Part shown: positions 2,480 through 18,196 of the stretch, piece by piece
Position numbering within the stretch: the stretch's first letter is position 1
How the letters are laid out: the number at the start of each line of letters is the position of its first letter
Source of the DNA: a virus
Lineage: Duplodnaviria > Heunggongvirae > Uroviricota > Caudoviricetes
Reading direction: 5' to 3' (one strand)
DNA length: 20,647 nucleotides
IMG/VR virus record: IMGVR_UViG_2585427793_000008
The notes under the pieces: model-generated
The model's database searches: none
Seen by the model: only the letters and a program-made list of their open reading frames with translations
What the model was told of the DNA's origin: nothing
Program-made: the position numbers and the translations under genes

Positions 2480-2555
2480 TGGTGGCCCTTGCTGGATTTG
2501 AACCAGCGACCTGGCGATTATGAGTCGCTCGCTCTCACCACTGAGCTAAAGGGCC
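2480..2555 (-). tRNA. ileZ: tRNA-Ile2/Met-type (anticodon CAU), ileX/ileZ-like
   Basis: Cloverleaf GGCCCTT...AAGGGCC acceptor, anticodon loop CTCATAA, T-arm GCTGG-TTCAAAT-CCAGC, 3-prime ACCA; closely resembles E. coli ileX from memory. Confidence 0.9.
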
Positions 2556-11420: not shown

Positions 11421-11641
11421 AGAACACCTCCCTGGCGTTTAAACATTTTTCCGGACTGAAACACTGCCAGTGGATAGCTAAGGGTATGAGTGCGTCCCTG
11501 AACCTGGCAGACAACCTTCTGACTTTCTGCATTGACCAGGCAAACCCGCAGAACGTGACCGTTGCTGGTGGCAAACCACTGCCCCACGCGGGGGCAACAG
11601 TTGTATCGGTGATACAGGGAATTAACGACGCGGCGAATCAT
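11417..11641 (-). CDS. Hypothetical protein, 74 aa
   Basis: ATG 11641 with GGGAGGTG SD and ATGA overlap with upstream stop; stop overlaps initiator start. Track ORF 11417..11656 uses an upstream ATG. Confidence 0.4.
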   Translation of the reverse strand: MIRRVVNSLYHRYNCCPRVGQWFATSNGHVLRVCLVNAESQKVVCQVQGRTHTLSYPLAVFQSGKMFKRQGGVL

Positions 11642-12300
11642 GGGCGCACCTCCCATTGATTACGGCAGAAAGCGGTAAGATTCAGGCTGTTCTCTGCCTC
11701 ATGGAATGCTTCAATGCAGCTCTCGTAGTACCGCATTGTGCGCAGACTTAACCCAAGCTGAAGCATCATCAGACCATCAAGGGTGATGTAATAACCACGC
11801 AGGGAGTCACCGTAGATGTGATAAGTACCCGGTATGAAATTGCGGGTAAAAAACTCGCGTGAGCAGTTCAGATACTCGATTTTGTCGACGATGTTCTGGT
11901 GCATGCGCTTAAAGTGGCAGGCAACATGCAGGGAGAAAATAACGGCCTTGCCGTTGACAACTTCAATTTTGAGGAATGGGGAAGTTGGGACTGTAGCCAT
12001 GATGGCAGCCTCCGTATGCAATGGATAACTTCCACCACCGGAGCTGCGAAACTCACTGGTGGCAGACTGAACAGGGTTCGCAGTACCGGCGCATACGGAA
12101 ACCGGCGAGCCTTTCGGCTCCCCTGCCCAGCCCACCATAATTCTGGCGTGCGTGAGCGCGGACGATAAAAAAGACGCTGGCGCGCCGTATATCGCCGTAT
12201 GCAATTCCGGGCTGCGACCCCCGGCACCCGCTTTATAAGGTGCGGAGACAGTGTAACGTCCCGAAATTGCAGAATCAATATTTGGTCTTGAAATGATCAT
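11638..12300 (-). CDS. Hypothetical protein; boundaries uncertain (possible real start at ATG 12000 giving 120 aa)
   Basis: 220-aa ORF has a low-complexity Gly/Ala/Ser-rich N-terminal half; internal ATG 12000 has a GGAGG SD 9 nt upstream; a second long ORF overlaps in another frame. Confidence 0.35.
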   Translation of the reverse strand: MIISRPNIDSAISGRYTVSAPYKAGAGGRSPELHTAIYGAPASFLSSALTHARIMVGWAGEPKGSPVSVCAGTANPVQSATSEFRSSGGGSYPLHTEAAIMATVPTSPFLKIEVVNGKAVIFSLHVACHFKRMHQNIVDKIEYLNCSREFFTRNFIPGTYHIYGDSLRGYYITLDGLMMLQLGLSLRTMRYYESCIEAFHEAENSLNLTAFCRNQWEVRP

Positions 12301-12410: not shown

Positions 12411-13117
12411 CACCGCTGCCAACCAATAACCTGAAATAACCCCATTTTCGGGTGATACCAGCGAGTCCCTCGCGGTTCTGCTTCCTCCATAACCCGATAA
12501 AAAGCAGCCATAAACGGTTCCACAGCAACAATTGCGCGACGTGACAACAATCCGTCCGGCGTCATGAACTCATGGGTGTCTGTAGGAATCTGATAGGCGT
12601 TCACCAGATTGCGGCATTTATCATCTGACAAACCGGTTTTTGCTTTCAGTTGGCGATATCCGGCATAGCCCTCACGAATAGTGCCCTTTTTAATTTGCTC
12701 GACTGTTTCAGCAACGTGGCTGACTTTTTCTTCCACCTGAGTGATCCGTTTCTGCTGACGAACTGCTTCAAGAGCCATCGCGGCAACCATTTCGATTTCG
12801 CTCATTGGCTTACGGATCTGTTCTTCCAGTTCGCGCCAGCGATCTACCAGGCGAGCAGTGAATTCAGGACAGAGCTGTGCGACGACAATGATGCTGTCGC
12901 GCTTACCTTGTTCTCCTTCAAACAGGTAATGCTCATATTGAACTTTAAAACCTAAGTTATTGATTCTTTCGGAAACCTCAATTTGAGGAGACCGGACAAC
13001 ACCACCTTTGGCTAATGTTTCAATAGTGCGTTTCACATTGTCATGACGTTTACCCACCAGCTCTGCAATTTCAACGCTGGTCATGGATACTTTGCCGTTA
13101 AAAATTGCGATGTTCAT
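12410..13117 (-). CDS. Rha-family phage regulatory protein
   Basis: N-terminal MTSVEIAELVGKRHDNVKRTIETL matches the recalled Rha N-terminal motif; ATGA overlap with Cro-like stop. Confidence 0.7.
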   Translation of the reverse strand: MNIAIFNGKVSMTSVEIAELVGKRHDNVKRTIETLAKGGVVRSPQIEVSERINNLGFKVQYEHYLFEGEQGKRDSIIVVAQLCPEFTARLVDRWRELEEQIRKPMSEIEMVAAMALEAVRQQKRITQVEEKVSHVAETVEQIKKGTIREGYAGYRQLKAKTGLSDDKCRNLVNAYQIPTDTHEFMTPDGLLSRRAIVAVEPFMAAFYRVMEEAEPRGTRWYHPKMGLFQVIGWQR

Positions 13118-13404
13118 TGTTTATCTCCTGCGTGTATTCCATCCGCTCTGTGTGGTGAACTTGGATTTAGGCTTTTGCGTAACAAGTTAGGAATTCCATC
13201 TTCAGGGTGAGGATAAAGATCTGGCCTTAAGCCATGAGGCGTAACCTTCCATGCAACTACTTCACATACTCGTAAAACGAAACGAGCAGGAATTGTGCTT
13301 TTTGAAAACCACTGATTCACCGCTTGCGGCGTCACACCAAGATTTCGCGCTATGGCATTTTGCGCAATTAATGCACGAAGTTTGTCGTAATCATTTCCTT
13401 CCAT
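13114..13404 (-). CDS. Cro-like / YdaS-like HTH regulator
   Basis: 96 aa; HTH segment IARNLGVTPQAVNQWFSK; first gene of the minus-strand early operon, divergent from cI. Confidence 0.6.
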   Translation of the reverse strand: MEGNDYDKLRALIAQNAIARNLGVTPQAVNQWFSKSTIPARFVLRVCEVVAWKVTPHGLRPDLYPHPEDGIPNLLRKSLNPSSPHRADGIHAGDKQ

Positions 13405-13537
13405 AACAAAGCACCAATATTAACTTTATAAATCAAGAGTACATCAAGTTTAAATTAACATGCAAGTTACAAAAGGATCGAATACACTAAAATCAAGTAA
13501 AGATTTATCCTTGTAAAGAAACCCACAGGATTTGGTC
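13405..13537. promoter_or_regulatory. Immunity-region divergent promoter/operator interval (pR/pRM/OR analogue)
   Basis: AT-rich 133-bp spacer between divergent cro-like and cI; octamers AAATCAAG (about 13429 and 13490) and ACATCAAG (13441) repeated; AGGA SD before cI ATG. Confidence 0.5.
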
Positions 13538-14227
13538 ATGAAGAACGTCAAAAACACGGAAAATCGAATAGCCGCGATGCTGAAAGCAAAAGGATGGACT
13601 CAGGCTCAACTGGCCCGCAAGTTAGGTGTGAGTGCGCAATCAGTGCAGTACTGGACAACAGGAAAAACATTTCCACGGAGTGATAAGCTCGCGCATTTAT
13701 CAGAGATTAGCGGTTATCCACAATCCTGGTTCTTAGGTGAAGACTCCTCACCAACCTTTTCCTCGCAAGAGAAACACCAGACAAGAACAGATAGCGTCGT
13801 GTTTAATGTCCTTGATGTTGAGTTTAGTTGCGGTGATGGAACTCATGTCCGTGGTGACTTGATAGATGTAGTGCGCTCAATAGAACTTGATCCTGAATAT
13901 GCCCGACGTCTTGTTGGAAATCGGGCATTCAAAAATATAGAAATAGGTAACGCCAGAGGAGACAGTATGGCTCCCACAATCTCACCTGGCGACCTTCTTT
14001 TTCTTGATAAGACAGTAACTTATTTTGATGGCGATGGTATTTATGCATTTTGTTTTGATGGAGAATGCTACGTGAAAAGGCTTCAAAAAATTGGAAGCAA
14101 AATCATGGTGTTATCTGATAACCCCAATTATCAACCATGGAGCATCGAAAAAGAGGGGTTAGCTCTGCTTTATATCCAGTCTAAAGTGATCTCATCAGTA
14201 CCATTCAACATAAACAGATTTGGTTAG
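13538..14227 (+). CDS. CI-type repressor (N-terminal XRE HTH + C-terminal S24 LexA-like peptidase)
   Basis: HTH WTQAQLARKLGVSAQSVQYW; S24 motifs GDSMAPTISPGDLLFLD and YVKRL (Ser-Lys dyad). ATG at 13538; track ORF starts at upstream TTG. Confidence 0.9.
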   Translation: MKNVKNTENRIAAMLKAKGWTQAQLARKLGVSAQSVQYWTTGKTFPRSDKLAHLSEISGYPQSWFLGEDSSPTFSSQEKHQTRTDSVVFNVLDVEFSCGDGTHVRGDLIDVVRSIELDPEYARRLVGNRAFKNIEIGNARGDSMAPTISPGDLLFLDKTVTYFDGDGIYAFCFDGECYVKRLQKIGSKIMVLSDNPNYQPWSIEKEGLALLYIQSKVISSVPFNINRFG

Positions 14228-14239
14228 TCTTTGATTTTA

Positions 14240-14260
14240 ACGGGCTTTGCCCGTTTTTTT
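14240..14260 (+). terminator. Intrinsic terminator after cI
   Basis: CGGGC-TTT-GCCCG followed by T7. Confidence 0.7.
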
Positions 14261-14290
14261 CTGCCTGAAATATACGATATCAATTTTTTC

Positions 14291-14319
14291 TTGACAGGCT
14301 ATTTCCCAAAACATAATAT
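14291..14319 (+). promoter_or_regulatory. Strong sigma70 promoter (pL-like position) with flanking operator-like repeats
   Basis: TTGACA (14291-14296), 17-nt spacer, TAATAT (14314-14319); downstream CTTGATTTGATTCAA contains the reverse complement of the OR octamer AAATCAAG. Confidence 0.6.
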
Positions 14320-14372
14320 CGCACCATCAATTATAACTTGATTTGATTCAATTTAAAATTGTTGGTGGATAT

Positions 14373-14834
14373 ATGAAGACACTAAAAGCAACTCCAGAAA
14401 CAACTAATTTTATCAACTGCGGCTGTGTTACGCTTAAGGGCTTAGAACTTGATTCCTTTGCATTAAATATTGCAAATTTGCTAAGTGCTGTACGCACATT
14501 CCATCTTCTGGATTGTGCTCGCTCAAAGGAACTGGGCATTGAGGTAATGGAATTTATCCATGAATATGCTCTATCTGCTGCTTCTCCTGCGCAACAAAAA
14601 CAATCCTTCCCTGAAAGCTGGCTGGTTAACCTTCGCACCCAACGCGAAGCCTGCGGCTTAACAACCGCCGAACTCGCCAGGCTGCTCGATCTCGATGAAG
14701 AAATTATCATCCAGTGGGAGAGCGGAGAGTATGAACCAACTATCAGTATGCTTATCCCACTGGCAAATATTCTTGGCTGCGATGCGATGTGGCTGTTAAC
14801 TGGCGAAACGGCAGCAAAGGATATCTGCGCATGA
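14373..14834 (+). CDS. Protein with C-terminal XRE-type HTH, 153 aa, unknown N-terminal domain
   Basis: ATG 14373 with GGTGGA SD; C-terminal CGLTTAELARLLDLDEEIIIQWESGEYEPTISMLIPLANILGCDAMWLLTGE is a classic XRE HTH. Confidence 0.5.
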   Translation: MKTLKATPETTNFINCGCVTLKGLELDSFALNIANLLSAVRTFHLLDCARSKELGIEVMEFIHEYALSAASPAQQKQSFPESWLVNLRTQREACGLTTAELARLLDLDEEIIIQWESGEYEPTISMLIPLANILGCDAMWLLTGETAAKDICA

Positions 14835-15073
14835 AAAACTGTAATGCTTACCATATTTGTCTCATTGGTGAATTGCTTGATTTCATACAAAAAAGCACTG
14901 CGCGCAATAATAAAAATATAACATATGGTGATCTGGTAATAATTTCAGAGGATATAAAGAGCATCGCTCTTAAATTCAAGAGCGACGCGAGTATTGATGA
15001 CGCTATTTACGCTTATCTTGCGAAAATAATTGACGGATCCAAAATCCAGCCTCTGGATGAACCTCGTCAGTGA
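14831..15073 (+). CDS. Hypothetical protein, 80 aa, translationally coupled to upstream HTH gene
   Basis: ATG 14831 overlaps upstream stop (ATGA); 3-prime end overlaps convergent minus-strand gene by about 70 bp. Confidence 0.4.
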   Translation: MKNCNAYHICLIGELLDFIQKSTARNNKNITYGDLVIISEDIKSIALKFKSDASIDDAIYAYLAKIIDGSKIQPLDEPRQ

Positions 15074-15230
15074 AAAACTCCTTTGATGAAGATGAGAACT
15101 GCTTCATAAACTTTACTTTATCTTCAGGTGAAACTACCTGACGAATTAATGCGGAGATAGCAACTTTGTGCCAAATTAATTCTTTTTTGAGTTCTGAAAT
15201 CTCTTTTTCGAGTTGCTCTGCGTTAATCAT
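15003..15230 (-). CDS. Hypothetical helical protein, 75 aa
   Basis: ATG 15230..15228 preceded by GGAGG SD; MINAEQLEKEISELKKEL suggests coiled coil; convergent with plus-strand genes. Confidence 0.45.
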   Translation of the reverse strand: MINAEQLEKEISELKKELIWHKVAISALIRQVVSPEDKVKFMKQFSSSSKEFFTDEVHPEAGFWIRQLFSQDKRK

Positions 15231-15409
15231 TTATCCTCCATTGAGAGCTGAATCGAAAATGGGGACCAACACGCGGCTACGTTTGGTCGTGCGCCGGACA
15301 CGGATAAGCATCCGGTAACTGATTATCAATCATTGCGGAAACAGTCTCAATATGAAAACACTTCTGAGACTCGCTATATAGCAGGACATATAAGTCAGCT
15401 GAGGAAGCC

Positions 15410-15775
15410 ATGAAAAAGTTCGAAAACATAACTGTTCTCCATGTTGATGACTTTGATTATACAAACCCGGAACTTCTCCCGGAGGTTGTAAAGGCAATAG
15501 ATGTTGCCGATATAGTGATTAGAGGAAAGAGAATTGTCAAAAACAGGCTCGCATGCACTTCAGAAGCAATGACAGAAACAACCTCACAGCAAGATAATTA
15601 CGAAGGCATTTGTCTGGAGCCTGATTCATTTGCGGTAAATGTTTATCATTTATTGCATGCAACACAGGTATTACATATGTCCAGTAATCACGAAACGAAA
15701 ACACTCGGCAGCGAAATTCTGAATTTTGCATGTGAGTATGCAAAAACTGCTGCCGAAAAAGAATTAGCGCAATAA
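15410..15775 (+). CDS. Hypothetical protein, 121 aa
   Basis: ATG with GAGGAAG SD; no recognisable motif. Confidence 0.5.
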   Translation: MKKFENITVLHVDDFDYTNPELLPEVVKAIDVADIVIRGKRIVKNRLACTSEAMTETTSQQDNYEGICLEPDSFAVNVYHLLHATQVLHMSSNHETKTLGSEILNFACEYAKTAAEKELAQ

Positions 15776-15853
15776 CAACAAATATGCTCTGAACGTTTAT
15801 TGCGGTTTTATCGCCGGGGATTGTTACAATCTTAATCCACAGGAGGCTTTATT

Positions 15854-15973
15854 ATGACTTTTATAAAGAATATGGCATCACACAAGACCGCCTGTCTTAT
15901 TGCACAATACGGTGAAAATTACATGCATATTGCCTGCTTATTTCTGCGTAAAGCATACGGAAATAACAAATGA
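15854..15973 (+). CDS. Small ORF, 39 aa (MTFIKNMASHKTACLIAQYGENYMHIACLFLRKAYGNNK)
   Basis: AGGAGG SD 7 nt upstream of ATG; stop overlaps next gene start (ATGA). Hand-translated, below track cut-off. Confidence 0.3.
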   Translation: MTFIKNMASHKTACLIAQYGENYMHIACLFLRKAYGNNK

Positions 15974-16329
15974 CACATGAACCCATTAATACATATCGTC
16001 GCCGTATAGCTGTTGCAGCACTCCATCGAATAAAACGTAAAACAGGTGGTGATCTGCTTATTGTTGACCTTCTGGATGGGAACATTACGACCATAGAAAT
16101 AACAGAACAGTTTATAAACCAGTTGCTGTTGCGCTTTGAAGACATTACCAGTGGTGAATTGGGTCGAGTGGAGGGTGAAACAGAATTCCGAACTGCATAC
16201 CAGAATGCCATCGGGATTAATCAACATACTGAATACCAGGCTGAAACCGGAAAGTTAATTATAGACAACCTTTTACAAGAGGTTATTGATTACGCGAAAG
16301 AAAAATATATCAGCGGAGGAATTAACTGA
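15970..16329 (+). CDS. Hypothetical protein, 119 aa
   Basis: ATG overlaps upstream small ORF stop; no recognisable motif. Confidence 0.5.
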   Translation: MTHEPINTYRRRIAVAALHRIKRKTGGDLLIVDLLDGNITTIEITEQFINQLLLRFEDITSGELGRVEGETEFRTAYQNAIGINQHTEYQAETGKLIIDNLLQEVIDYAKEKYISGGIN

Positions 16330-16544
16330 TGGCTAATTTATCCCCTGTATCTGTTGTGCACGAAAAAGTGCAGATCGTTATGACAATTGAAAATGGCCTG
16401 GTAACAGATGTCTGCAAAGTCCGCGATGGAGAGCTGATTGCCAGCATGGATACATTCATATGGCTGGCAGAAAGAGCGGGGTATCAGATAACAGCACCTG
16501 CTCAGGAGGAAACCAGTGACATTAACAGCAACGCGAATTCCTGA
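16329..16544 (+). CDS. Hypothetical acidic protein, 71 aa
   Basis: ATG overlaps upstream stop (TGATG); part of a coupled gene string. Confidence 0.45.
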   Translation: MANLSPVSVVHEKVQIVMTIENGLVTDVCKVRDGELIASMDTFIWLAERAGYQITAPAQEETSDINSNANS

Positions 16545-16734
16545 GTGGGTCCACCAGCAGGCGTTGCTGGTCCTGCGGCGGTACAGATGCCGACGTATAT
16601 TCCCGCATCGGATACAGCGCAACGGATATCTCAGTCTGAAGGTTAACCGTCGCTGGCGGCTGTTATCGAAAGACGACGGCCGGAACTGGGAAGTAATGAG
16701 TCATGAACGTTATTCGGGAGAAATAAAGAAATGA
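16516..16734 (+). CDS. Hypothetical basic protein, 72 aa (GTG start)
   Basis: GTG 16516 preceded by AGGAGGA SD; Arg-rich. Confidence 0.4.
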   Translation: MTLTATRIPEWVHQQALLVLRRYRCRRIFPHRIQRNGYLSLKVNRRWRLLSKDDGRNWEVMSHERYSGEIKK

Positions 16735-17183: not shown

Positions 17184-17372
17184 ATGAACATTTATTTCAG
17201 AATAGTTATATCACTGGCAATTATCGCATGTATTTACGGATTGCTCGTCCCGTTTCTGATATCAATGAAGGATACGGTAGCGGTGATTTCTGGCTTTGCA
17301 CTGACGTTTCTAACCCCGCCATGTATTTATACCATTTATAAGGGGCTTTCTTTCACTAAGGATAAAAGATGA
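17184..17372 (+). CDS. Small membrane protein, 62 aa, two predicted TM helices
   Basis: AGGAGG SD; hydrophobic IVISLAIIACIYGLLVPFLI and AVISGFALTFLTPPCIY; stop overlaps next gene start. Confidence 0.5.
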   Translation: MNIYFRIVISLAIIACIYGLLVPFLISMKDTVAVISGFALTFLTPPCIYTIYKGLSFTKDKR

Positions 17373-18196
17373 AAAAAATTATTTTTTCTTTAGCCATTGT
17401 TCTGCCTGCCATTGGCCTTGTCGGTTGTGATCGTGTTGAGCCTGGTAATGTGGGCATCAAAGTCAACAAACTTGGCGACGACAAAGGCGTCGGTGAAGTG
17501 GTCGGTGTTGGTCGCTACTGGACAGGCTGGAACACTGAAGTTTATATCTTCCCGACCTTTAAGCAGATGAAGACCTACGATGATCCATTCAGTTTCCAGA
17601 TGAGCGATGGAACAACCATTGGTTACCACATCGGAGTAGCCTACAAGGTTGATCCATCCAAAGTTACCACAGTCTTTCAGACCTACCGCAAAGGCGTGGA
17701 CGACATTACCGACACCGACCTGCGCCAGAAGATAGCCGACGCACTCAACCGACTGGCCAGCAAAATGACCACCGACAAATTTATCGACGGCGGCAAGTCT
17801 GAGCTGCTGGATGCAGCTCTTAAAGACATTCAGGAAGAAATGACGCCCATCGGTATTCAGGTAATAAGCCTCTCATATGTGGGTAAGCCGGAATACCCGC
17901 CTACTGTTATCGACAGCATTAATGCCAAAGTCACGGCGAACCAGAAAACTCTGCAACGCGAGCAGGAAGTAAAACAGCGCGAAGCGGAAGCCAACATGTT
18001 GCGCGCGGAAGCTGCCGGACAGGCTGATGCGATTCGCACAAAAGCCCAGGCTGAAGCCGATGCTATTCGTTTACGCGGTGAAGCTCTGCGTCAGAACCCC
18101 GGTGTTATGGAGCTGGAAGCCATCAATAAATGGAACGGCACGCTGCCGCAATACATGACCAGCGGTGCCAATACACCATTTATCCAGGTTAAATAA
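17369..18196 (+). CDS. SPFH/band-7 (prohibitin-like) domain lipoprotein, 275 aa
   Basis: Signal peptide with lipobox AIGLVGC; C-terminal Ala/Glu-rich coiled coil and RQNPGVMELEAI resemble prohibitin/HflK family C-termini. Confidence 0.75.
   Translation: MKKIIFSLAIVLPAIGLVGCDRVEPGNVGIKVNKLGDDKGVGEVVGVGRYWTGWNTEVYIFPTFKQMKTYDDPFSFQMSDGTTIGYHIGVAYKVDPSKVTTVFQTYRKGVDDITDTDLRQKIADALNRLASKMTTDKFIDGGKSELLDAALKDIQEEMTPIGIQVISLSYVGKPEYPPTVIDSINAKVTANQKTLQREQEVKQREAEANMLRAEAAGQADAIRTKAQAEADAIRLRGEALRQNPGVMELEAINKWNGTLPQYMTSGANTPFIQVK

Follow-up and report, generated by a model that had tools for sequence, protein, structure and literature searches.

In phage lambda, the pL/oL region lies downstream of cI, where a terminator follows the cI-rex transcript and repressor operators overlap the early promoter. 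Phages can also carry morons, a concept reportedly due to Hendrix and co-workers; such genes, lambda bor for example, are transcribed against the surrounding operon in lysogens. In Bacillus subtilis, SinI antagonises the regulator SinR by means of a helical domain that the two proteins share (PMC3163267). The closest described counterparts of the locus presented here are the phiP27 genes L10, L09 and L08 (NC_003356), which are direct homologues of its genes for a 153-aa regulator (p153) and for proteins of 75 and 121 aa (p75, p121). phiP27 matches positions 14631-15861 at 92-93%, a segment that includes p121, p75 and an 80-aa frame (p80). L10 differs from p153 in its N-terminal domain, and the phiP27 immunity region is also different. 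L09 is a frameshifted p75 homologue of 59 aa, broken by a 1-nt insertion, and p80 is not annotated in phiP27. These phiP27 genes and the regulator homologues in the LC5678xx prophages are all annotated as unknown or hypothetical, and a literature search on phiP27 L10 and the Stx2e phage regulators found nothing on these genes.

The window is the entire 20,647-nucleotide stretch of IMG/VR record IMGVR_UViG_2585427793_000008. It is 99.8% identical to a prophage adjoining yecE/yecN in E. coli ETEC6, and sequence comparison places it among the phiP27-like lambdoid prophages of E. coli, with yecE as its insertion site; phiP27 and PhiR49_2 are related to it. cI, which encodes an S24 peptidase and an HTH domain (Pfam), ends at 14227. 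Our best explanation, to which we assign a probability of about 0.6 as a whole, is that the region following cI is the left early control point of this prophage. Overall, the region consists of a probable repressor-controlled leftward early promoter, the gene of a DNA-binding protein and an adjoining small-gene cassette, an ordinary phage mosaic architecture. Every feature listed in an initial annotation of this segment could be read directly from the sequence where it had been placed. The control elements are as follows, all predicted.

14239-14262, plus strand: intrinsic terminator after the cI (pRM) transcript, AACGGGC-TTT-GCCCGTT followed by a T run (terminator scan).
14279-14295, no strand assigned: operator-like 17-mer, ATCAATTTTTTCTTGAC, a putative oL site that overlaps the -35 hexamer.
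14291-14319, plus strand: pL-like sigma-70 promoter, TTGACA (14291-14296), N17 and TAATAT (14314-14319), with hexamers conserved across loci.
14326-14342, no strand assigned: operator-like palindrome, ATCAATTATAACTTGAT, a putative oL site with a perfect ATCAA-N7-TTGAT (5-7-5) arrangement.
14347-14363, no strand assigned: third, weaker operator-like site, TTCAATTTAAAATTGTT, with 2 mismatches, just 5' of the SD.

As in lambda, cI is followed immediately, on its own strand, by a terminator and an early promoter, the operators are of oR type and the operon ends in xis and int. Unlike lambda, the window has no rexAB, and the first gene of the pL operon encodes an XRE HTH protein and not an N-type antiterminator. 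The terminator hairpin (14239-14255) has a GC-rich stem of 7 bp with T7 directly after it, and is the sole plus-strand terminator-like site within 13000-16100. It is unchanged in all loci with the same cI, and the heteroimmune relatives L076 and L078 carry another hairpin and T run at this position.

The promoter matches the consensus at 10 of 12 positions, a match that by itself is no better than chance would give (10 promoter-like sites, compared with 7.7 +/- 2.3 in shuffles). Both hexamers are conserved in all relatives and the spacer is variable. The initial annotation had placed operator-like repeats around the promoter, and immunity-type operators do flank the hexamers: the flanking 17-mers share the half-sites ATCAA..TTGAT with the cI-cro intergenic region, and 6 of the 23 matches to ATCAA-N7-TTGAT fall inside the 246 nt of oR and oL (binomial P=2e-7). 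The palindrome at 14326-14342, lying at about +1 to +17 of the promoter, is the only zero-mismatch match in the whole window. Among relatives with cI 88-93% identical, the operator half-sites are kept and the centres vary, and the site at 14347-14363 retains its palindromic core in related immunity types. Four of the five GTATCAA/TTGATAC heptamers within 6.2 kb of heteroimmune L070 fall in oR and oL, and two oL 14-mers of heteroimmune L076 have oR counterparts. Operators that are of the cI-cro type and change with the immunity type are characteristic of a lambda-type pL/oL, and both properties were found here. The pL-equivalent position proposed by the initial annotation is thereby borne out: as judged from these patterns, the promoter that follows the terminator of cI corresponds to pL/oL, and it is probably held off by CI in the lysogen. 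A search of Rfam with 14200-15900 gave no match at E<=1.

The regulator and the small protein encoded further along the operon have the following positions.

14373-14834, plus strand: p153, first gene of the early-left operon, with a helical hairpin (aa 23-69) and a 434-Cro/cI-type XRE HTH (aa 81-143).
15410-15775, plus strand: p121 (phiP27 L08), with a C-terminal helical hairpin (aa 69-115); PHROG 5451/4587.

The ATG of p153 is preceded by GGTGGA; RefSeq starts the gene at TTG 14343 (163 aa), a start without an SD. The architecture suggested by the initial annotation, an unnamed N-terminal domain before a C-terminal XRE HTH, was confirmed: aa 87-141 match HTH_3 (PF01381; E=1e-10, 41.7 bits against a cut-off of 23), and the AlphaFold model has an N-terminal helical hairpin (pLDDT about 80) with the XRE HTH behind it. 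The structural search for remote homology that had been proposed was informative, as Foldseek matched the HTH to the heads of the 434 and P22 repressors with a probability of 1.0 over a five-helix fold (TM about 0.8-0.9 relative to the target, 27-33% identity, ~65 residues). Thus, p153 shares the five-helix XRE fold of 434 Cro, 434 repressor and P22 C2, DNA-binding domains to which it also has matches at the sequence level. Unlike the 434 and P22 repressors, it carries the HTH C-terminally behind a helical hairpin and has no S24 peptidase domain, and its gene occupies neither the cro nor the cI position. p153 also falls short of the DicA-type repressor model NCBIfam NF007257 (36.4 bits, cut-off 101). 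It matches PHROG 4836 at E=4.6e-77 (aa 1-152 on profile positions 1-145 of 194), a family whose name, 'CII-like regulator', is an annotation label only. PHROG 4836 is widespread, most of its clusters comprise proteins of ~230 aa with two HTH domains, and no characterised member was found. p153 ends in an HTH2-type tail (..LGCDAMWLLTG), resembling a recombinant or a deletion between two HTH repeats. A split gene, in which a frameshift would have divided the common 230-aa form into 153 and 80 aa, was considered and rejected, since what the 230-aa proteins have in addition is a second HTH that bears no relation to p80.

We found 155 homologues of p153, and the regulators after cI in the Stx1a/Stx2a prophages LC5678xx are 60-64% identical to it. 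The HTH is almost invariant among heteroimmune phages; it therefore presumably cannot read immunity-specific operators, and its target would be shared by the phages or belong to the host. A search for short inverted repeats in 14800-16000 as a possible DNA target returned only the p75 terminator and one weak pair. p153 is probably an early transcription factor that would dimerise via its hairpin.

Between p153 and p121 lies a cassette of 579 bp, composed of p80 and p75 and bounded by 9-bp direct repeats of CATGAAAAA.

14830-14838, plus strand: left CATGAAAAA copy and left edge of the cassette, at the stop/start junction, from alignment with cassette-free loci.
14831-15073, plus strand: p80, an 80-aa ORFan with an ATGA overlap (14831-14834) with p153; PHROG 23054.
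14961-14988, minus strand: terminator-like hairpin of p75, 12 pairs and then TCTTTAT, 15 nt after the p75 stop and inside the p80 ORF.
15003-15230, minus strand: p75, a 75-aa ORFan with the SD GGAGGA 5 nt before its ATG; PHROG 20080, annotated in RefSeq.
15322-15350, minus strand: candidate p75 promoter (prediction only), TTGAGA-N17-GATAAT, 10 of 12 positions, with hexamers unchanged between two haplotypes.
15409-15417, plus strand: right CATGAAAAA copy and right edge of the cassette, at the p121 start.

The cassette is AT-rich (GC 0.37, as against 0.46-0.475 in the flanks and the window) and most related prophages lack it: it was found in 54 of 5426 complete E. coli genomes, compared with 348 that have the HTH-gene region. 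In all 22 cassette-bearing loci examined, which represent four types of N-domain and no fewer than four immunity types, the cassette lies between an HTH gene and p121. The ATGA junction is also present in 11 related loci, where it couples the HTH gene straight to p121, so that p80 uses the translational-coupling start that serves p121 where the cassette is missing. PhiR49_2 has 159 nt in place of 14804-15322. These alignments show the cassette to be a separate AT-rich indel, placed exactly at the stop/start junction through which, in cassette-free loci, the HTH gene is coupled to p121; deletion by recombination between the 9-bp repeats could explain the polymorphism equally as well as insertion. 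The coupled HTH/80-aa pair of the initial annotation was therefore upheld as to its ATGA overlap and not as a conserved functional pair (54 cassette genomes against 348 with the region).

Like morons, the cassette is small and AT-rich, sits between genes that are adjacent elsewhere, and combines presence or absence in collinear phages with a deviant base composition. p75 opposes the operon and has its own terminator-like hairpin and a candidate promoter, the 10/12 match of the latter not being above chance locally. The hairpin has no U tract after it on the plus strand, and in the second haplotype its single substitution converts a G-U pair to A-U. GC-rich hairpins at 15262-15318 were no more stable than shuffles (z=-1.0 and -1.8). 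Unlike morons, the cassette consists of two convergent overlapping ORFs, of which p80 is plugged into the translational coupling of the host operon.

The convergent 75-aa gene with a GGAGG SD was found as the initial annotation had described it, overlapping p80 by 71 bp (15003-15073; about 70 bp had been noted), and neither protein has a nameable motif. The N terminus of p75 is predicted to be helical. Its homologues were found only at >=71% identity, all from E. coli except for one Citrobacter record, and no relatives of p75 were found outside the cassette. Variable sites in p75 fall at third codon positions in 12 of 17 cases (P=0.002). Estimates of omega, which come from what are essentially two haplotypes, with 14-15 substitutions in each ORF-specific segment, were 0.18 for p75 (P=0.002) and 0.21 for p80, the latter compared with 0.67-0.97 for the remaining frames (Fisher P=0.006). 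Both ORFs thus appear, on these substitution patterns, to be under purifying selection with omega about 0.2. p75 is the only one of the genes that is predicted from its position to be placed for expression from the repressed prophage.

Several other readings of the small genes were weighed. One is that only p75 is real and that p80 is an accidental frame that crosses the p75 3' UTR and terminator and owes its translation to the inherited coupling start alone. RefSeq annotates p75 and leaves p80 unannotated in all five records inspected, the p75 hairpin lies inside the p80 ORF, and p80 has no relatives outside the cassette in a full phmmer search of 1.84 billion representatives. The multi-repeat phmmer matches of p80 to an FG-GAP protein and a MucBP/MucB2 adhesin were judged spurious, a pattern and not homology, because two unrelated repeat families match the same stretch at 27-32% identity. 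The variable sites of p80 are distributed 5/6/8 over the codon positions with no third-position excess, from which p80 had been taken as non-coding; this was revised after Nei-Gojobori synonymous-site counts, which take into account how few synonymous sites AT-rich codons have. Against an accidental frame, no frame other than that of p80 is enriched for synonymous changes, its frame and stop position are retained in a 9%-diverged haplotype, and the chance that a frame starting at the junction ATG stays open for 80 codons is about 0.002-0.005 at this composition. We consider p80 unlikely to be accidental. The two ORFs might also form a self-contained convergent module whose members counteract each other as RNA or protein, with p75 acting in the lysogen and p80 on induction. 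p80 and p75 always occur together with overlapping 3' ends (the antisense overlap up to the terminator would be 113 nt at the RNA level), both are under apparent purifying selection, and their predicted promoters are opposed and differently regulated. Such a module is nevertheless improbable: the searches turned up no family, no motif and no precedent for p80 or p75, neither is hydrophobic like type I toxins, and phiP27 tolerates a frameshifted p75 beside an intact p80.

The toxin-antitoxin or exclusion module put forward in the initial annotation would instead pair p80 with the HTH gene, the XRE protein neutralising or regulating the small downstream protein. p80 directly follows the HTH gene with an ATGA overlap in 22 of 22 cassette loci, XRE proteins are often antitoxins, and there are weak generic matches to HipB, MqsA and CapH-type HTH models. 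These PADLOC and NCBIfam matches are confined to the HTH and far below curated cut-offs (RmrA, CapH and HTH_VI for p153 in PADLOC, with none for p75 or p121), and no toxin, antitoxin-partner, Rex or defence model was matched beyond them. p80 has no toxin match in Pfam, NCBIfam or PADLOC, and no N, Rex or Kil family was found among the region's proteins (Pfam, PHROG, PADLOC). The conserved co-occurrence typical of type II systems was not found either, as most genomes have the HTH gene without p80, and the junction then couples p121. Furthermore, the pL-like promoter looks CI-repressed, so the prediction for the lysogen is that neither p153 nor p80 is expressed, which argues against a Rex-like exclusion role for the two. 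No toxin-antitoxin or exclusion system is recognisable in the region, and these results do not speak for such a role; we regard the pairing as very improbable. A different partnership, between p153 and p121, could resemble SinR/SinI, with p121 binding the p153 hairpin and switching off or retuning DNA binding later in the early-left transcript. The C-terminal hairpin of p121 is a paralogue of the N-terminal hairpin of p153 (BLASTP, E=8e-11, 45% identity across 47 aa), AlphaFold predicts each of them as a helical hairpin at pLDDT about 80 (H74-89 and H94-120 in the AlphaFold model of p121), and p121 is downstream of the HTH gene in nearly all loci, being ATGA-coupled to it in 11. As in SinR/SinI, where SinI acts on SinR through exactly such a shared domain (PMC3163267), an XRE regulator adjoins a small protein that is a paralogue of its helical domain; this supports working alike, and not membership. 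Unlike SinR/SinI, the domain and gene order is reversed, and neither protein has a sequence or Pfam link to the SinI domain (E<=1). p121 does not co-vary with the N-domain type of the regulator, the same p121 accompanies phiP27-type (type 4) regulators that have no detectable similarity to it, and the paralogy could merely record a domain shuffle between neighbouring genes. A fold search with p121 gave no meaningful match. A SinR/SinI-like mode of action is doubtful. It is quite unlikely that the two proteins form a previously unrecognised timer of this kind at the beginning of the early-left operon, with the p80/p75 insert uncoupling the partners and adding a lysogen-expressed gene; if true, many E. 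coli prophages, the Stx1 and Stx2 converting phages among them, would possess a regulator/antagonist timer.

Under the reading of the region as a left early control point, the cI transcript would stop at the hairpin at 14239-14262, and CI would keep the promoter at 14291-14319 off in the lysogen. Upon induction or infection, pL would transcribe p153 and then p80, its transcript continuing across the cassette to p121 and the remaining genes of the operon. p153 would act on its target in the host or common to heteroimmune phages, and p80 would be translated by coupling whenever pL fires. p75 would be expressed independently, most plausibly from the repressed prophage, and opposing transcription from pL would silence it in lytic growth.

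These findings are unsurprising in kind, and the DNA-binding regulator is common but unstudied. The p153 family provides the first early-left gene in hundreds of E. coli prophages, Shiga-toxin phages among them, and no study of it was found. The cassette illustrates, in a small space, phage mosaicism that acts precisely on a junction of translational coupling, and it provides two small ORFans, of which p75 is a candidate lysogen-expressed gene. Knowledge of the target of the p153 family would fill a gap in the understanding of the early programme of N-less lambdoid phages, a programme that can bear on induction and toxin release.

The 2.5 kb around the region under study are, by sequence comparison, 99.8% identical to a prophage of E. 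coli ETEC6 that adjoins yecE (DUF72), yecN and cmoA. The integrase and excisionase lie at the far end on the same strand. Other relatives are Escherichia phage PhiR49_2 and, from position 14631 onward, the Stx2e phage phiP27. The terminator, promoter, repeats, three ORFs, ATGA junction and 71-bp overlap listed in the initial annotation were all present as stated, and the local order is a cro-like gene, cI and then the region under study:

13404-13114, minus strand: cro-like YdaS-family gene
13538-14227, plus strand: cI, with an HTH and an S24 peptidase domain
14239-14262: hairpin followed by seven T residues
14279-14295 and 14326-14342: operator-like repeats of 16-17 nt
14291-14319: promoter TTGACA-N17-TAATAT
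14373-14834: p153, a 153-aa ORF with HTH_3 at aa 87-141
14831-15073: p80, an 80-aa ORF with an ATGA overlap with p153
15230-15003: p75, a convergent 75-aa ORF with a GGAGGA Shine-Dalgarno (SD) sequence and a 71-bp overlap with p80
15399-15404: GAGGAA, the SD sequence of p121 itself (ORF 15410-15775, plus strand)

Promoter-like matches are not enriched in the region (10 versus 7.7 +/- 2.3), so the evidence for the promoter is its conservation and its context. The repeat at 14326-14342 is a perfect ATCAA-N7-TTGAT palindrome. With up to two mismatches this motif has 23 matches in the 20.6-kb window, three of them in the cI-cro intergenic operators (oR) and three at the 14291-14319 promoter (oL), or six in 246 nt (binomial P=2e-7); this sharing of sites bears out the proposed pL-equivalent position with operator-like repeats. 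Comparison with other loci indicates that the operators change with the repressor. Among relatives with 88-93% cI identity, both hexamers and the ATCAA/TTGAT half-sites are conserved, and the centres and spacers differ. The heteroimmune L070 has five GTATCAA/TTGATAC heptamers in 6.2 kb, and four of them fall in the cro-cI gap and before the HTH gene. L076 represents yet another immunity type, the third: ahead of its HTH gene stand the 14-mers ATCGACAAACCGAT and ATAGGTAAACCTAT, which have counterparts in its oR, ATCGGAAAGCCGAT and ATAGGTAAATCGAT. On these sequence grounds the promoter at 14291-14319 is the predicted pL/oL. Since the operators vary with the repressor and the p153 HTH is almost invariant, we infer that CI (and Cro), not p153, would read the predicted operators at 14279-14363, and that p153 would be expressed early and stay off in the lysogen.

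Profile searching places p153 in PHROG 4836 (E=5e-77), which bears the label 'CII-like regulator'. Nearly all of its 155 homologues come from E. coli, and no name among them goes beyond 'helix-turn-helix domain-containing protein' or 'transcriptional regulator'; Stx1a and Stx2a prophages also carry homologues. Its NCBIfam matches (DicA, HipB-like, MqsA-like) cover the HTH only and are far under the cut-offs. The AlphaFold model has a helical hairpin (H23-45, H49-69; pLDDT ~80) followed by a five-helix HTH, which can be superposed on 434 Cro and on the heads of the 434 and P22 repressors, a likeness also found at the sequence level. Across these phages the regulator has 26 invariant alignment columns, all but one within aa 91-142. 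At least four or five sequence types of the N-terminal region occur, and they move together with the immunity region. Clusters of the family are mostly of ~230 aa with two tandem XRE domains; p153 has a single HTH, whose tail is of the HTH2 type. Comparison of 14373-14834 with P0001, P0003 and others shows one-HTH and two-HTH forms of the family; the one-HTH forms end in this second-HTH tail, MWLLTG..., which suggests repeated deletion or duplication through recombination between tandem HTH repeats.

The initial annotation had treated the HTH gene and p80 as a coupled pair, which did not hold as a conserved unit: sequence comparison shows the pairing to be an insertion polymorphism. The end of the HTH gene reads ...GCGCATGAAAAAG in 11 related loci, where an ATGA overlap joins it directly to p121 (L08 of phiP27). 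In the window the junction CATGAAAAA at 14830-14838 is repeated at 15409-15417, and the 579 bp between the copies contain p80, p75 and the stretch preceding p121. This cassette has a GC content of 37%, lower than that of the HTH gene (46%) or the window (47.5%). Of 5426 complete E. coli genomes, 54 carry it, versus 348 that match the wider region. It lies between the HTH gene and p121 in 22/22 cassette-bearing loci examined, behind four N-domain types and no fewer than four types of repressor. PhiR49_2-type prophages carry 159 unrelated bases in place of 14804-15322, giving a 182-aa HTH protein. The cassette may be an insertion here or may equally have been deleted from the other loci through recombination between the 9-bp repeats. 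The p75-p121 intergenic stretch (15231-15409) has 10 variable sites in 179 nt and is more conserved than the flanking coding DNA; two GC-rich hairpins at 15262-15318 had no Rfam match and did not fold significantly better than shuffles.

p75 is annotated by RefSeq, has a strong SD sequence and is followed, 15 nt past its stop, by a 12-pair hairpin and then a T-rich stretch. Third codon positions account for 12 of the 17 variable sites in its non-overlapping part (P=0.002); in phiP27 it is truncated by a 1-nt insertion in a T run. p80 is absent from the annotation in five RefSeq records inspected and its variable sites are flat across codon positions (5/6/8), but at this composition an open frame of 80 codons starting at the junction ATG would arise by chance with a probability of ~0.002-0.005. 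In the omega test, which rests on two haplotypes, p75 gave 0.18-0.21 (other frames >3 or undefined) and p80 gave 0.21, with 7 changes at 32 synonymous versus 7 at 136 non-synonymous sites (Fisher P=0.006); the other p80 frames gave 0.67-0.97, and synonymous enrichment occurred in its own frame only. On all these lines together, both are probably real genes. The homology search found no relatives beyond the cassette, and FG-GAP and MucB2 repeat matches to p80 were not credible homology. As first described, neither carries a nameable motif, with no applicable family in Pfam, NCBIfam, PADLOC or PDB sequences.

Nothing supports a toxin-antitoxin or exclusion role for the HTH gene with p80 and p75: the searches gave neither a toxin family nor a defence system, the pairing is not obligatory, and the predicted state of the promoter in a lysogen is off. 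The earlier interpretation was partly right, on position and regulator, and unsupported as to the pair, toxin-antitoxin and exclusion. A minority hypothesis, drawn by analogy, is that p153 and p121 act as a regulator and antagonist like SinR and SinI, in which a small protein paralogous to the helical domain of the regulator heterodimerises with the regulator and abolishes DNA binding (PMC3163267). The layout is shared: p121 residues 69-115, likewise a predicted helical hairpin, are 45% identical to p153 residues 24-70 (E=8e-11), and in nearly every locus the gene after the HTH gene encodes a small protein of 66-121 aa that is essentially this hairpin. However, the small protein does not co-vary with the N-domain type of the regulator, and phiP27-type regulators have no similarity to it.

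The C-terminal half of p121 is under clear purifying selection (omega 0.10-0.24; N-terminal half 0.29-1.4), RefSeq annotates only 15569-15775 (68 aa), and diverged relatives include 66-aa hairpin-only versions; the N-terminal 53 residues may therefore be dispensable or recently added. Some 1.5 kb further down the operon, the start of a ParE-like toxin ORF (16516-16734, plus strand; PF24732, E=7e-18) overlaps a 71-aa ORF of no family (16329-16544, plus strand), making 16329-16734 a candidate toxin-antitoxin pair within the same early-left operon. A 62-aa hydrophobic ORF (17184-17372, plus strand) precedes and overlaps an SPFH/Band_7 gene (17369-18196, plus strand; Pfam E=3e-31); the pair is conserved in phiP27-like prophages and had no PADLOC match. 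In the early-right arm, Rfam C4 antisense RNA (12055-12142, minus strand; 80 bits) and isrK (12167-12243, minus strand; 54 bits) lie within an 'ash family protein' ORF (11638-12300; Phage_ASH plus Phage_pRha), so that this arm carries a P1/P7 immI-like c4/antirepressor control element downstream of a Rha-family gene. Two tRNA genes (2309-2382 and 2483-2555, minus strand) are located in the prophage's late or accessory part.

From the operator sharing, CI would keep pL off through the sites at 14279-14363. Upon derepression, the pL transcript would encode p153 and then p80 via the inherited coupling start, and would pass the terminator, predicted to be active on the minus strand only, on to p121. 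p153 would dimerise via its hairpin and, given the invariant HTH, bind a site common to heteroimmune relatives; a search for this DNA target did not find it. The orientation, terminator and composition suggest that p75 would be made from its own predicted promoter while pL is silent, with a transcript ending at 14961, and would be opposed by pL transcription in lytic growth. p80 or p75 may have a new function. The region is a lambdoid early-left control region with a moron-like cassette and a regulator from an uncharacterised XRE family.
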